The notes under the pieces: generated by a model
What the model was told of the DNA's origin: nothing
What the model saw: only the letters and a program-made list of their open reading frames with translations
Database searches by the model: none
IMG/VR virus record: IMGVR_UViG_2938655777_000006
Coordinates: 80,983-144,982 of that record
DNA length: 64,000 nt
From: a virus
Taxonomy: Duplodnaviria > Heunggongvirae > Uroviricota > Caudoviricetes
Direction: 5' to 3' (one strand)
Program-made: the position numbers and the translations under genes
Part shown: positions 19,345-28,199 of the stretch, one piece after another
Layout of the letters: the number at the start of each line of letters is the position of its first letter
How positions within the stretch are numbered: position 1 is the stretch's first letter

Positions 19345-19950
19345 TTGGCTGAACGTTTATTAAAATGCCCCATATGCGGACAGTATGGGCGCAAAGTGGA
19401 CATGATTAGAGAAACAGATAAGCGGCATTACCATAGAGAATACTGTCATGAGAAATGGAAAAGGGAAAGAATTTTTAAACGAAAAGAGCAAGAGGAATTA
19501 GATTCGCTAACAGACACCATAGTAAAGATACATAAGCTACAAGGCAGGTACTCTGTACCTAAAACTTTTTATCCATTTATTCAAGACTTGAGAAATGATT
19601 CGGTGTTATTTGGTAGGTTGGATAAAAAGTATAAACAAGGAACTTCATATGAAGTAATCAAAAATACATATGAGTATTGTTCTGAAAAGATAGAGTGGGC
19701 TAGAGGGAATAAAGAATTTAAAAACTTAATGGCTGAATTAAAATATTGCTTTGCAATAGTAAAGAACAACATTGAGAACTCCATTAGAGCAAGTAGACAA
19801 ACTCAGCGAAACCAAGTTGAGTCTGAAGCATTAACTAAGCATATAGAAGCAATGAGTGATGTCCATGATAAAATAACTAAGATTCAAATTAGCAATGTAG
19901 CAACAAATGATGAGTCTGACCAGATTGATGTTACAACACTGTTTGATTGA
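19345..19950 (+). CDS. Zn-ribbon protein (possible helicase-associated/loader; inference)
   Basis: N-terminal CPICGQYG...HYHREYCH; TTG start after taaaGGAGGTGAtaag; immediately upstream of helicase. Confidence 0.45.
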   Translation: MAERLLKCPICGQYGRKVDMIRETDKRHYHREYCHEKWKRERIFKRKEQEELDSLTDTIVKIHKLQGRYSVPKTFYPFIQDLRNDSVLFGRLDKKYKQGTSYEVIKNTYEYCSEKIEWARGNKEFKNLMAELKYCFAIVKNNIENSIRASRQTQRNQVESEALTKHIEAMSDVHDKITKIQISNVATNDESDQIDVTTLFD

Positions 19951-21493
19951 GGAGGGCGATAACATTTCTGACGTAATATCTACAATTGAAGACATCTCTA
20001 CTGAAACGTTAGTGGTGGGAAGCTTTTATTTGAACCCTGATTTACTTTTAGACTATAGCGAAGTAATTAAATCAAAGTATGATTTTAATCAGCCAACGGC
20101 TAGGTTTATGTATGATTCATTACTTGATTTATATAGCCAACATGCAGGAACAGAAATAAATGAAGTAAAAATAAATATTTATATGAATTCAAATGATGAG
20201 CGAAAAAAGAAGTATGACTATTTGAAAGGCTATTCATACATAGATAGAATTACGAAGATTGTTGATTTGGATGATTTCCCTGTTTACTATGAAAAACTTA
20301 AAAAATTCTCTCTTCTTAGAGAGTTTGAGCGAAAAGGATTCCCAGTCCAAAAGTTAATGGACAGAAAAGATTTTGACAAGATTGGGACTGAAGACATTAT
20401 TAAAGGAATGGAGTATCAGATCAACACCATCGGTACAGTGATTGGTGGAGTCGAAGATAGTGTTATTTTGGGTCACAACATGCCTGAAAAGATTGAAGAA
20501 TGGAAGTTGGCTCCAGATGTGGGCATACCGATACCTTTTGAGATAATCAACACATTGCTACGTGGACTTAGAAGGAAAAAGTTTAATCTTTTTGGAATGC
20601 ACAGTGGATGTGGTAAGAGTCGTACTACAAGTAAAATTGCTTGTTATCTAGGTATTAAGTTGAAAATTCCTGTGTTGGTGCTAGTTAATGAACAGGATGA
20701 AAATGAATGGTTAGGTATGCAGATCAGCAGCGTTCTGAACAATCCTGAGTTTGGATTCGATATTCAAATGAAACGAAGGGGTATCGACGGAATTGATGAA
20801 ACGAAGATTGTAACTGGAACACTGACTGAGGACGAAGAAGAGATTGTTAAGGAAGCAGCCCGATACATAAAAGAGAACAGTAAAATCTATTTTTTAGAAT
20901 TAAATAAGTACGATGAAAATACACTCAAGCGACAAATCAAAAGACACAAGCTAAGAAATTGTCAGTTAATAATTTATGACACAATGAAAGCACCAGATCA
21001 TGATTGGATGACTTTCGTAAGAACTGCTGACATGCTTAAAGAGGTAGCAAGCACTGAAGACATTCCTGTTTGGTCTACTTTTCAATTGACTGACGACAGT
21101 TTGTTTAATGATATGTTGACAAGCCAAGCTATTGCTAATGGTAAGCATATTAAGCACGTAGCTGATGCGCTAATGATGGCTAAACCAATACCTAGGGATC
21201 AGTATGATAAGTTTGTGATATATAATCCTAACGATCCTTTTCTTGGCGAGTCTACAACACAATTAGAAATACATACAAACTATTATATGGTTGTTATTGA
21301 TAAAAACCGTGGCGGCAAGGACAAGGATATCTTATGCTTTGAGGTCGATAAAGGTAAAAATATATGGATTGAGAGGGGCTATCTTGTACCTTCTGAAAAC
21401 GAGAAGGAATTAAAACAACTCAAAAAAGAGAGCAAAAAGCTTAAAACAGAAAAGCAGGTCAAGGATTTGAAAAAGGCACTTAACAAAGAGTGA
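19907..21493 (+). CDS. DnaB-like replicative DNA helicase
   Basis: Walker A FGMHSGCGKSRTT, DnaB C-terminal RecA-like domain; start ambiguous (ATG 19907 overlaps previous gene by 44 nt without SD; in-frame ATT 19964 lies 8 nt after GGAGG). Confidence 0.6.
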   Translation: MMSLTRLMLQHCLIEEGDNISDVISTIEDISTETLVVGSFYLNPDLLLDYSEVIKSKYDFNQPTARFMYDSLLDLYSQHAGTEINEVKINIYMNSNDERKKKYDYLKGYSYIDRITKIVDLDDFPVYYEKLKKFSLLREFERKGFPVQKLMDRKDFDKIGTEDIIKGMEYQINTIGTVIGGVEDSVILGHNMPEKIEEWKLAPDVGIPIPFEIINTLLRGLRRKKFNLFGMHSGCGKSRTTSKIACYLGIKLKIPVLVLVNEQDENEWLGMQISSVLNNPEFGFDIQMKRRGIDGIDETKIVTGTLTEDEEEIVKEAARYIKENSKIYFLELNKYDENTLKRQIKRHKLRNCQLIIYDTMKAPDHDWMTFVRTADMLKEVASTEDIPVWSTFQLTDDSLFNDMLTSQAIANGKHIKHVADALMMAKPIPRDQYDKFVIYNPNDPFLGESTTQLEIHTNYYMVVIDKNRGGKDKDILCFEVDKGKNIWIERGYLVPSENEKELKQLKKESKKLKTEKQVKDLKKALNKE

Positions 21494-21511
21494 GTCAAGA
21501 GGTGATATAAA

Positions 21512-22549
21512 ATTGATGCTCAAACTTTAAAAGAAAACATAATAAGAGACAATAAAGTTGCAGATATTTTAACATCTCTCGGTTGTCACATTAATGATAG
21601 GATGTCTACCCATGGTGAAATAAGATCGACAAGGCCAGGAGGAGATAATCCTTCTAGCCTTCAGGTTTTTACTGACACTTTACTTGTAAATTGCTACACT
21701 AATCCTCTTCCCAAACTAGGGAGTGGGCATCCAGACATCATAACACTCGTTCAGCATTATAAGGATATCTCGTTTTCAAAGGCCATGTACTATATCTGTG
21801 AAGTTTGTGGATATAGTTACTACGCTGATTACAAACATACAAAAGTAGAAATAGATCCATGTCTTCAGTTCCTAGATTCAATAGAACCAAAGACCGAAGC
21901 TTACGATGAAGTCCCATTGAGAAAAGTAGATGATACTGTTCTGAACTCTTACATAGCTATCCCCAATAAACTATTTCTTGATGAAGGAATAAATTACGAA
22001 ACACAGAGATTGTTCGAAGTCGGGTATTCTCTTAGGGATAACTGTATAACAATACCGATCAGAGATGAGTTAGGAACGCTCGTTGGGGTCAAAGGAAGAA
22101 CTACGCTTGATTATAAAACATTAAAAACGTCGAAGTATTGGTTCCCTATACCTACCCCAAAGAGCCAAATACTATACGGTTTAGATAAGAGTTACGATCA
22201 CATCAAAAAGGCTGGCAAAGTAATTGTGTGGGAAGCTGAGAAGAGTGTCCAGAAGGCGTGGAGCTATGGTATTAAGCATACTGTGAGTGTTGGTGGACAT
22301 GAACTGAGCAAAACACAGGTTTTGAAGCTTGAACGTTTGGGGGTTGAGGTAATATTGGCTTTTGATAACAACATAAGCGCTTCTGATCTAAAAGAAGAGG
22401 CAAGTAAATTTGTCATTAGAGATAATGTTTATTGTATTTTAGCGCATAAAAACAGAAATATTCTTGAAGAGAAAGACGCTCCTATAGACAAAGGGATAGA
22501 CTTTTTTATGACATTAATGAACGAAGAAAAATACAAAATTCCTGTCTGA
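21512..22549 (+). CDS. DnaG-like DNA primase
   Basis: TOPRIM-like VIVWEAEKS / ILAFDNN; N-terminal Zn-finger-like LGCH...HGE lies upstream of the first ATG (21602) in a frame open from 21506 with no canonical start; SD GAGGTGA + 6 nt + ATT 21512. Confidence 0.5.
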   Translation: MDAQTLKENIIRDNKVADILTSLGCHINDRMSTHGEIRSTRPGGDNPSSLQVFTDTLLVNCYTNPLPKLGSGHPDIITLVQHYKDISFSKAMYYICEVCGYSYYADYKHTKVEIDPCLQFLDSIEPKTEAYDEVPLRKVDDTVLNSYIAIPNKLFLDEGINYETQRLFEVGYSLRDNCITIPIRDELGTLVGVKGRTTLDYKTLKTSKYWFPIPTPKSQILYGLDKSYDHIKKAGKVIVWEAEKSVQKAWSYGIKHTVSVGGHELSKTQVLKLERLGVEVILAFDNNISASDLKEEASKFVIRDNVYCILAHKNRNILEEKDAPIDKGIDFFMTLMNEEKYKIPV

Positions 22550-26405: not shown

Positions 26406-26537
26406 ATGGCAAGTATCAAAGTCATAAACAAACAGACAGGAAGGGAGAACAGGCATCTCACTTACAATTTTATGAAGGCAATTAACAATGATCTTAAAAT
26501 TACACTACCTGAAAAATTCAAAATAAGTATTCAATAA
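26406..26537 (+). CDS. small hypothetical protein (43 aa)
   Basis: Hand-translated MASIKVINKQTGRENRHLTYNFMKAINNDLKITLPEKFKISIQ; RBS tGAGGAGTGAttagat. Confidence 0.3.
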   Translation: MASIKVINKQTGRENRHLTYNFMKAINNDLKITLPEKFKISIQ

Positions 26538-26624
26538 ATTGGTGAAAGGAGTGATTCAACCATAGTTTGGAAGCAAAAGCAACCTAAAATTCCGTTTGAG
26601 TCTTACGACAATACATATAGTAAG

Positions 26625-28199
26625 TTGGCTAAAATTAATGGGATTGAAGATATTGATCAATTTCTCAATCCATTATCGAATGTGATATGCGATTCATATT
26701 TACTTAAAAATATTGATGCATTAGTAACCCGAATTATTTTGGCAATACGCAACCATGAAACAATCACAATATCAGGAGATCCTGATTTTGACGGGGCAAC
26801 ATCGCTAGTAGAACTGTACAAGTACCTTAAAAATTTCACAGACGATGTACATTATGTATGCAATGAACGAAGCGAAGGTCACTCGATCGATAATTTAATT
26901 GATCAAATTCCTAAACGAACAAAGTTGTTTATTGCTGTAGATAGTTCAAGTAATGATACAGAATCGATGAAGGCATTGGTTGATAAAGGTATTGACTGCT
27001 TAATTATTGATCATCACACCATTACTAACGATAATCCCTATGCGATTATAGTGAATCCTCAGCAAGAAGGATGTAAATATCTAAATAAAAATGCTTGTGG
27101 TGGATTACTTGTGTTCAAAGTTTGCGAGGTAATTGATGATTACATGAATACACATTATGCACATCAATTATCTGACTTGCCGGGATTTTCATTGATGGCA
27201 GACATGATGTCAATGATGGAGTTAGAGAATAGATATTTTGCGAAACTATCCTTGAAGGGATTACGACATGCAGGATTAAAAGCGCTATTTTCAGCTATGA
27301 ACTTTGACTTAAGCAACCTTTCTGCGACAGACTTTCTTTATGGTGTAAGCCCTGCTGTTACGGCAGCTACAAGAGCAGATAATATTCAATTAGCAATAGA
27401 CTTCTTAATGTGTGATGAAGACTCACCAGAGATTAAAACAATAGTAAAAGAATTGATCAAGTTAAATGAAAATCGTAAAGTAATCCAAACTGAAGCATTA
27501 GTTAGATTGAAGTCCTTGGTTAATGAAAACGACAAAGTTGTTATTGTTATTGATCATACTCTTGGAAAAGGGATGAATGGACTGGTGGCACAAGAACTGT
27601 CCAGAACATATAGTAGGCCAGCAATTGTACTTGGGAATGGAGACAGTGAAGATACATATGCAGGAAGCTTTCGAGGTTTAGAAGATTTTTCAATGTTAGA
27701 ACTATTAAATAGTTGTAAAAGCGTTAATTATGCGGCTGGACATGATGCTGCTGGTGGAATTCAATTACTCAAAAATAATATTGATGCATTACGCGAAGAA
27801 CTAAATGAAAAATTGAGGAACTTTGTTGCAGATAACTCTATATATTATGATCTTGACTTCGATCTAACAGAGGTAAATGAAAACTTAATTAATTATTTAT
27901 CAGAATTTTATCGTATTTCAGGCAACCAGTTCAAACAAGGTAAATTTCTCATAAAAGGTCTATTTGTATCAGATAAGAAGTTGATGGGTAAATCCAACAA
28001 CACAGTTAAGATTGACTGCGACAAGCTTCAGCTTATGAAGTTTAAGACTGACGTAGATTACTATAAAAGTGTTCCAGTCTTTAGTGAGATAGAAGCAATT
28101 GGAACGTTAAATATAAATGTATGGAAAGTTTACAGACCAAAATTCAAAGTTACTAAAACACTCCAATTATTTATAGAAGAATACAGAGAAAATAATTAA
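26625..28199 (+). CDS. RecJ-like DHH-family single-strand DNA exonuclease/phosphoesterase
   Basis: DHH motifs DPDFDGATS, LIIDHH, and DHHA1 AAGHDAAGG; TTG start after gaaAGGAGTGA... region. Confidence 0.6.
   Translation: MAKINGIEDIDQFLNPLSNVICDSYLLKNIDALVTRIILAIRNHETITISGDPDFDGATSLVELYKYLKNFTDDVHYVCNERSEGHSIDNLIDQIPKRTKLFIAVDSSSNDTESMKALVDKGIDCLIIDHHTITNDNPYAIIVNPQQEGCKYLNKNACGGLLVFKVCEVIDDYMNTHYAHQLSDLPGFSLMADMMSMMELENRYFAKLSLKGLRHAGLKALFSAMNFDLSNLSATDFLYGVSPAVTAATRADNIQLAIDFLMCDEDSPEIKTIVKELIKLNENRKVIQTEALVRLKSLVNENDKVVIVIDHTLGKGMNGLVAQELSRTYSRPAIVLGNGDSEDTYAGSFRGLEDFSMLELLNSCKSVNYAAGHDAAGGIQLLKNNIDALREELNEKLRNFVADNSIYYDLDFDLTEVNENLINYLSEFYRISGNQFKQGKFLIKGLFVSDKKLMGKSNNTVKIDCDKLQLMKFKTDVDYYKSVPVFSEIEAIGTLNINVWKVYRPKFKVTKTLQLFIEEYRENN

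Follow-up and report, generated by a model that had tools for sequence, protein, structure and literature searches.

Primase locus and its start site

The stretch of DNA analyzed here (the window) comprises 64,000 nucleotides (nt) of the IMG/VR virus record IMGVR_UViG_2938655777_000006, positions 80,983 to 144,982, and originates from Paenibacillus sp. EKM208P. It contains a replication module with the gene order ligase-like gene, protein of unknown function, DnaB-like helicase, primase and, further on, a RecJ-like DHH exonuclease. The subject of this report is the start of the primase gene, which very probably lies at an AUU codon (nucleotide 21512) and not at the internal methionine from which the corresponding 315 amino acid (aa) "DNA primase" at NCBI begins.

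A megablast search of the region against annotated phages returned no match. The window is thus without a near relative in that collection, and searches were made at the protein level. The same helicase, primase and exonuclease genes are present in large Firmicute phages, Geobacillus virus E3 having an extra small open reading frame (ORF) after the helicase; the annotation of phage c-st names its helicase and primase as homologues of SPbeta YorI and YorJ. A profile of the primase family matched the catalytic cores of DnaG chains in PDB (E-values 1e-17 to 1e-8), the window primase matched PHROG 47, "DNA primase" (4.8e-33), and Foldseek matched its structural model to 2au3, 4edg, 5guj and 1dde. 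Single-sequence Pfam matches to Toprim fall under the curated cut-offs. As judged from the profiles and the model, this is a DnaG-type primase with an RNA-polymerase domain (RPD) of Toprim fold. The protein (345 aa) ends about 60 residues past the Toprim core and a C-terminal DnaB-binding domain was not detected in it; primase and helicase may bind by another route.

The features at the start of the gene, including its Shine-Dalgarno sequence (SD) and the part encoding a domain like the zinc-binding domain (ZBD) of DnaG, are as follows:

21491–21493, + strand: helicase stop codon TGA, 18 nt ahead of the primase start; the 18-nt gap is kept in relatives
21499–21506, + strand: extended SD GAGGTGAT, pairing over 8 nt without mismatch to the 3' tail of Bacillus-type 16S rRNA
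21512–21514, + strand: ATT (AUU), probable primase initiation codon, from aligned homologue starts and clade conservation
21512–22549, + strand: full primase coding sequence (CDS), 345 codons plus stop; DnaG-type, with ZBD-like N-terminal domain and RNA-polymerase/Toprim core
21515–21601, + strand: the 29 codons that follow the AUU up to the first ATG, absent from public annotation; coding by selection, homology and model
21602–21604, + strand: internal ATG, the start chosen by gene callers (315 aa at NCBI), judged not to be the real start
21513–21530, + strand: overlapping +1-frame mini-ORF TTG ATG CTC AAA CTT TAA, a by-product of ATT-GAT-G that is not conserved

The ORF finder lists the primase as 21602..22549, ATG 21602 being the first in-frame ATG, GTG or TTG of a frame that is open from 21506. 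A TGA at 21503–21505, itself inside the SD, shuts this frame upstream and is followed by the codons TAT AAA ATT GAT GCT; translation from 21506 reads YKIDAQTLKENIIRDNKVADILTSLGCHINDR-MSTHGE... Sequence and translation thus agree with the initial annotation, which had described a primase frame open from 21506 and lacking any ATG, GTG or TTG before 21602. Its account of GAGGTGA (21499–21505) followed after six bases (TATAAA) by ATT 21512 was equally accurate. The duplex of GAGGTGAT with the anti-SD has an energy of -13.1 kcal/mol, with 9 nt between the GAGG core and the ATT and 5 nt between the last paired base and the ATT.

TTG 21513 and ATG 21516 are out of the primase frame, and their product, (M)MLKL, ends at TAA 21528–21530. 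This short product had been correctly predicted for ATG 21516, which had, however, been assigned to the -1 frame; because 21516 lies one base past the codon start at 21515, the frame is +1. The canonical UUG shares two bases with the AUU (AUUG), opens this five-codon +1 ORF and is not conserved in loci with ATA or ATC. In one relative (locus L006) a single TAG stands between helicase and primase.

Start codons of related primases and coding of the extension

Using tblastn against annotated phages, homologues were found to align from query residues 2–5 of the extended frame. The annotated start of the E3 primase, AAGGTGAGATAGG ATG GAT GCT, corresponds to GAGGTGATATAAA ATT GAT GCT in the window, so that the E3 ATG matches ATT 21512 codon for codon. 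Phage c-st likewise has an in-frame ATG aligned on this codon, preceded by an SD of its own. The deposited start of the c-st primase (AP008983.1, CST059; L002), at locus position 1543, is probably 16 codons too far downstream, ATG 1495 behind TAGGTGA fitting the family.

The starts of 120 homologous protein clusters were compared. Nearly all of the clusters at 36–45% identity begin with a Met aligned to the Ile of the window, while 40 of the 44 closest (P0001–P0044, 43–100% identity) are called 5–97 residues short, the missing length varying with the position of a chance ATG, GTG or TTG. Variable truncation among close clusters together with full length among distant ones points to a whole clade without a canonical start. 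The closest clusters are truncated because gene callers disallow starts at AUU, AUA or AUC (AUH; ATH in DNA).

The codon aligned to query residue 1 was then read in the DNA of 98 loci from isolate genomes, IMG/VR, a metagenome and Logan assemblies, and a clade of 27 distinct primase sequences (46–100% identity) was defined on a neighbour-joining tree. All 17 loci of at least 69% identity possess an SD of the GAGGTGAT type (the AGGTGATC variant in L006), a 5-nt spacer and then ATT. Among the more distant members of the clade ATT occurs in L025, L022, L097, L093 and L095, ATA in L019 and L021, and ATC in L020, L096 and L090/91. In total the start-site codon is ATT in 19 clade sequences, ATA in 2 and ATC in 3 (24/27 ATH), the exceptions being one each of ATG (L092), TTG (L023) and GTT (L094). 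Outside the clade, 56 of 58 sequences have ATG, TTG or GTG at the site or within a few codons of it. The two ATH cases there are the L029–L034 lineage (39% identity), with ATT at 1501 after AAGGTGA and 6 nt and its first canonical in-frame codon 67 codons downstream of the ATT, and L046, with ATA at 1378. Because ATH is found in 24 of 27 clade members and in these two outsiders, the weak primase start is, on the sequence comparison, an old and maintained trait of the clade, with more than one origin in the family. The third base of the start codon appears to drift among U, A and C and almost never to become G.

The coding nature of the extension was investigated in 13 members of the tight clade over codons 2–30. 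In the primase frame the proportions of synonymous (pS) and nonsynonymous (pN) differences are 0.449 and 0.054, a pN/pS of 0.12 that indicates purifying selection; the other two frames over the same bases give 4.8 and 1.9. Substitutions GCT->GCC and AAA->AAG are silent in the primase frame, the former changing Leu to Pro in the mini-ORF frame, and CTC->CCC in L004/L005 changes an amino acid of the mini-ORF.

An AlphaFold2 model of the primase (69 sequences) has a mean predicted local distance difference test score (pLDDT) of 91.5, with residues 1–30 at 93–97, and in it the extension forms helices 3–12 and 16–22 of the N-terminal domain. The best PDB match of the model is Aquifex DnaG ZBD+RPD (2au3; E-value 1.5e-15, 391 columns), and it also matches the isolated ZBD of Bacillus stearothermophilus DnaG (1d0q_A; TM-score 0.58 normalised to the target). 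Because of the confidence of the model and its structural matches to DnaG, the first 30 residues are taken as part of a predicted DnaG-ZBD-like folded domain.

The initial annotation had seen in this extension a likeness to the DnaG N-terminal helix and the beginning of a CHC2-type zinc finger. The likeness holds at the level of fold. The zinc-finger label is only partly right: the extension's "GCH" does not correspond to the canonical CHC2 motif, and most of the ligands seem to be missing. The DnaG zinc motif is CPFHxExTPSF...CFGCG, and by eye the window sequence TRPGGDNPSS...NCYTN keeps only one of the four canonical ligand positions. No sequence-level match to the ZBD was obtained with the family profile against PDB DnaG chains. 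The CHC2 zinc ligands appear to be largely lost in this primase lineage. Three cysteines, C25 (21584–21586, within the extension), C96 (21797–21799) and C99 (21806–21808), are conserved in the primase family and could represent a relocated metal site.

Helicase and exonuclease starts

A survey took in every ORF of 120 codons or more on either strand of the window and scored SD pairing for ATG, GTG, TTG and ATH candidates. It shows the arrangement at ATT 21512 to exceed chance: only three ORFs were found to have an ATH codon behind a strong SD (-12.7 to -16.1 kcal/mol) and a best canonical candidate more than 6 kcal/mol weaker:

ATT 19964 (helicase): SD -12.7 kcal/mol, best canonical candidate -6.3
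ATT 21512 (primase): SD -13.1 kcal/mol, best canonical candidate -1.6
ATA 26562 (exonuclease): SD -16.1 kcal/mol, best canonical candidate -3.4

Other ATH candidates from this survey and from a looser motif scan (e.g. 7204, 8912, 12719 and 28511) were dismissed since a canonical codon with a comparable SD is present in each. The two further start regions are:

19950–19966, + strand: helicase SD AGGAGGG (19950–19956), 7 nt and ATT 19964; CDS 19964–21493
26546–26564, + strand: exonuclease SD AAAGGAGTGAT (26546–26556), 5 nt and ATA 26562; CDS 26562–28199

The start of the DnaB-like helicase is, from these comparisons, most likely ATT 19964. Seven relatives (79–88% identity) have an ATT or ATC at the homologous position, preceded by a closed frame that offers no canonical codon, more distant helicase loci have ATT and ATA, and codons 2–14 show a pN/pS of 0.23. 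The ORF finder had placed the start at ATG 19907, which was rejected: it falls within the gene upstream and lacks an SD. The C-terminus of that upstream gene, DVTTLFD*, is conserved in its own frame.

Similarly, the RecJ-like DHH exonuclease, a homologue of SPbeta YorK, most likely starts at ATA 26562. A canonical codon first appears 21 codons further on, at TTG 26625, and the NCBI call starts there. The GTG start of the exonuclease of Alicyclobacillus phage KKP_3916 aligns exactly on ATA 26562, and the Paenibacillus relatives are variably truncated in the databases. In related prophage loci the start codon is ATA in 11 of 14 and TTG in the other 3; codons 2–21 have a pN/pS of 0.11. A putative 43-aa ORF (26406–26537) ends 24 nt ahead of the ATA.

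Proposed mechanism, competing accounts and known systems

The assignment of the primase start to AUU 21512, as put forward in the initial annotation, is borne out by the aligned homologue starts, the ATH codons in 24 of 27 clade members, the purifying selection and the confidently folded N-terminal domain, and we hold it to be correct with high probability. The start position, the SD, their conservation and the coding extension have been documented above; decoding by formylmethionine (fMet), reduced efficiency, sensitivity to initiation factor 3 (IF3) and a regulatory purpose would be expected from established knowledge. In the mechanism we propose, the extended SD GAGGTGAT would hold the 30S subunit so that the AUU falls in the P site at normal spacing, and initiator fMet-tRNA would pair with it despite the third-position mismatch. 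The product would be a primase of 345 and not the annotated 315 aa, the additional residues supplying the first two helices of the DnaG-ZBD-like domain. The helicase (AUU 19964) and exonuclease (AUA 26562) of the same module would use the same device. Output from an AUH codon would be below that from AUG, about 10-fold in the nearest studied Firmicute cases, and would be sensitive to IF3 and to initiation fidelity, so that the replisome proteins would stay scarce or in a set ratio. Translation of the preceding ORF probably contributes through coupling, since each AUH lies 13–24 nt past the stop of that ORF.

Translational attenuation is, by analogy, the function we favor for AUU 21512, with some reserve. 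The overall proposition, namely a primase AUU start conserved in the clade, with the same device in helicase and exonuclease and an attenuating effect on replication proteins, seems to us likely. A further step would be to regard the three AUH starts as a module-wide "start-codon code" which places the phage replisome under the host's control of initiation fidelity (the IF3/IF2 balance). This is speculative and we consider it rather doubtful; were it true, the replication proteins would be produced in a constant low ratio, or chiefly at times of relaxed fidelity, e.g. under stress or at induction. The code would then act as a translational gate on prophage replication, long maintained in this phage lineage and re-evolved elsewhere in the family, in the L029–L034 group and in L046.

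Several points weigh against the proposition. In L094 (position 550; Logan assembly SRR13870166) a GTT stands behind AAAGAGGTGAT and neither a canonical nor an AUH codon is in frame. AUH logic does not explain this case, for which an assembly error, a pseudogene or a start weaker still could be responsible. In Paenibacillus vulneris (L090/L091, 1501–1509; TGA TTG AAA ATC GAT GCA) a TTG two codons upstream of the ATC is called as the start. This TTG is crowded, about 3 nt after the SD core, and the choice between ATC and TTG is ambiguous. Selection against G at the third position is deduced from few changes and is statistically not strong. The stronger predicted SD pairing of ATH loci compared with canonical-start loci (median -13.1 vs -11.5 kcal/mol, p = 2e-4) agrees with an extended SD making up for a weak codon, and is uncorrected for phylogeny. 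UUG 21513 could, in ATT-G loci, capture many of the initiations and compete with the primase start. Lastly, the expression level and the IF3 dependence are carried over from work on other genes in other species.

Four competing accounts were considered. The first is that the AUH codons are used essentially only by ribosomes which have just terminated upstream (termination-reinitiation coupling), so that the weak codon would impose a fixed ratio to the upstream protein and not an IF3-sensitive attenuation of free initiation. The distances from the upstream stops (19948–19950 to 19964, 21491–21493 to 21512 and 26535–26537 to 26562; 13–24 nt) are compatible with this and are conserved in relatives, but the SDs are strong enough for de novo binding of 30S subunits, and we regard exclusive coupling as fairly unlikely. 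Reinitiation in Escherichia coli is also lowered by IF3 overexpression (PMC2268962), and the two models are not cleanly separable.

According to the second, ATG 21602 is the real start, the primase has 315 aa and the upstream open frame is a relic. Gene callers and NCBI chose this ATG, which is the first canonical start codon. It lacks a usable SD, however (an AGG abuts it), and its Met is not conserved, being Ser in L006 and Gly in more distant clade members. The called starts of the relatives scatter from 5 to 97 residues into the protein, and the 29 codons upstream are under selection (pN/pS 0.12), align with the N-termini of distant homologues and form two helices at pLDDT 93–97. Homologues beginning at Met 21602 with unconserved residues upstream, which the initial annotation had named as evidence against an AUU start, were not found. 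This account is very improbable.

The third, recoding, seems hardly credible. Initiation at UUG 21513 or AUG 21516 would be followed by a frameshift, or readthrough of the UGA codons at 21491 and 21503 would yield a helicase-primase fusion. The TTG and ATG do lie at plausible distances from the SD, and in the window helicase and primase share a frame, separated only by TGA GTC AAG AGG TGA (then TAT AAA). A slippery heptamer is, however, not present, the +1 ATG is gone where codon 2 is GAC (L009, L019 and L097), the TTG is gone in the ATA and ATC loci, conservation in the primase frame begins as early as codons 2–7 (DAQTLK), whose changes are synonymous, and the helicase stop is out of the primase frame in L025, L022 and L097. 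RNA structure around the primase start did not exceed that of shuffled controls (z = -0.02), which also argues against recoding. A phage tRNA reading AUH as initiator was ruled out, as a tRNA scan of the window found no tRNA genes.

The last, that a sequencing error, a 1-nt indel (placed by the initial annotation right after the out-of-frame ATG) or a recent ATG->ATT lesion has left the gene broken or decaying in this genome, might be suggested by the ATG 4 nt downstream of the ATT and by the single G->T that would turn the ATG GAT GCT of E3 into ATT GAT GCT, but it can be set aside with near certainty: error and indel are excluded because the arrangement recurs in many independent genomes and assemblies, ATT, ATA or ATC being found in at least 24 distinct sequences (isolates, IMG/VR and metagenomes) down to 46% protein identity, the +1 ATG is missing in L009, L019 and L097, base changes in the overlap are silent for the primase but alter the mini-ORF peptide, extension and remaining gene are under purifying selection, and two neighbouring genes show the same feature.

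An AUU start for the primase, with AUH starts in its two neighbours, has practical consequences. Primase, helicase and exonuclease would be mis-called in public databases for a whole group of Paenibacillus prophages, and structure prediction or expression cloning from the truncated entries would give proteins without part of a folded domain. Close relatives that are variably truncated at the N-terminus, together with distant relatives of full length, constitute a signature by which more such genes may be sought. Conserved non-canonical starts are rare and usually regulatory; three in one module suggest control of replisome stoichiometry or timing, possibly via IF3.

With respect to AUU/ATT starts in phage primase or helicase genes nothing specific was found in the literature; the SPP1 genome paper lists canonical starts only and is uninformative. 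Starts of this type are known from bacteria. In E. coli infC and pcnB the AUU start limits expression and IF3 proofreads the third-position mismatch (PMC5499595), and AUH codons give 1–2% of AUG expression in E. coli reporters (bioRxiv 10.1101/063800). In Staphylococcus aureus, infC (AUA), cvfC1 (AUU), ccpN (AUA) and citZ (AUA) have extended SDs and about 10% of AUG expression, and for one gene the AUH yield varies with growth medium (PMC13009471). Enterococcus faecalis ebpA has an ATT start, its annotated ATG being 120 bp downstream (PMC4447247).

The window starts resemble the S. aureus and E. faecalis cases in that an AUH codon at normal spacing follows a strong extended SD, is conserved in orthologues and is passed over by pipelines for a downstream codon. 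They differ in belonging to a prophage, where three genes of a single replication module have them, and in the interchange of U, A and C down to about 46% identity, where the others are single chromosomal genes; the effect of AUH was measured in those genes, while the window starts are predicted from sequence. E. coli infC is autoregulated by its own product, and no such feedback is evident for primase, helicase or exonuclease; in addition, the host here, in contrast to that of infC and pcnB, is Gram-positive with a stronger dependence on the SD. The primase of E. coli itself, encoded in rpsU-dnaG-rpoD, is kept scarce relative to its neighbours post-transcriptionally, through a weak ribosome-binding site, rare codons and mRNA processing; a non-canonical start codon is not known to be among these means. 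Among phages, the YorJ homologues of E3 (GP98) and Clostridium botulinum phage c-st (CST059) share homology over the full length (35–41% identity) and the order helicase, primase, RecJ-like exonuclease with the window, yet primases of the large Firmicute phages and SPbeta-like prophages have ATG, TTG or GTG as start codon where the window has ATT. The mechanism is thus one already known, and what is new is the gene family, the depth of conservation with U/A/C interchange, the occurrence in three genes of one phage replication module, for which the literature searched gave no earlier description, and the systematic mis-annotation.

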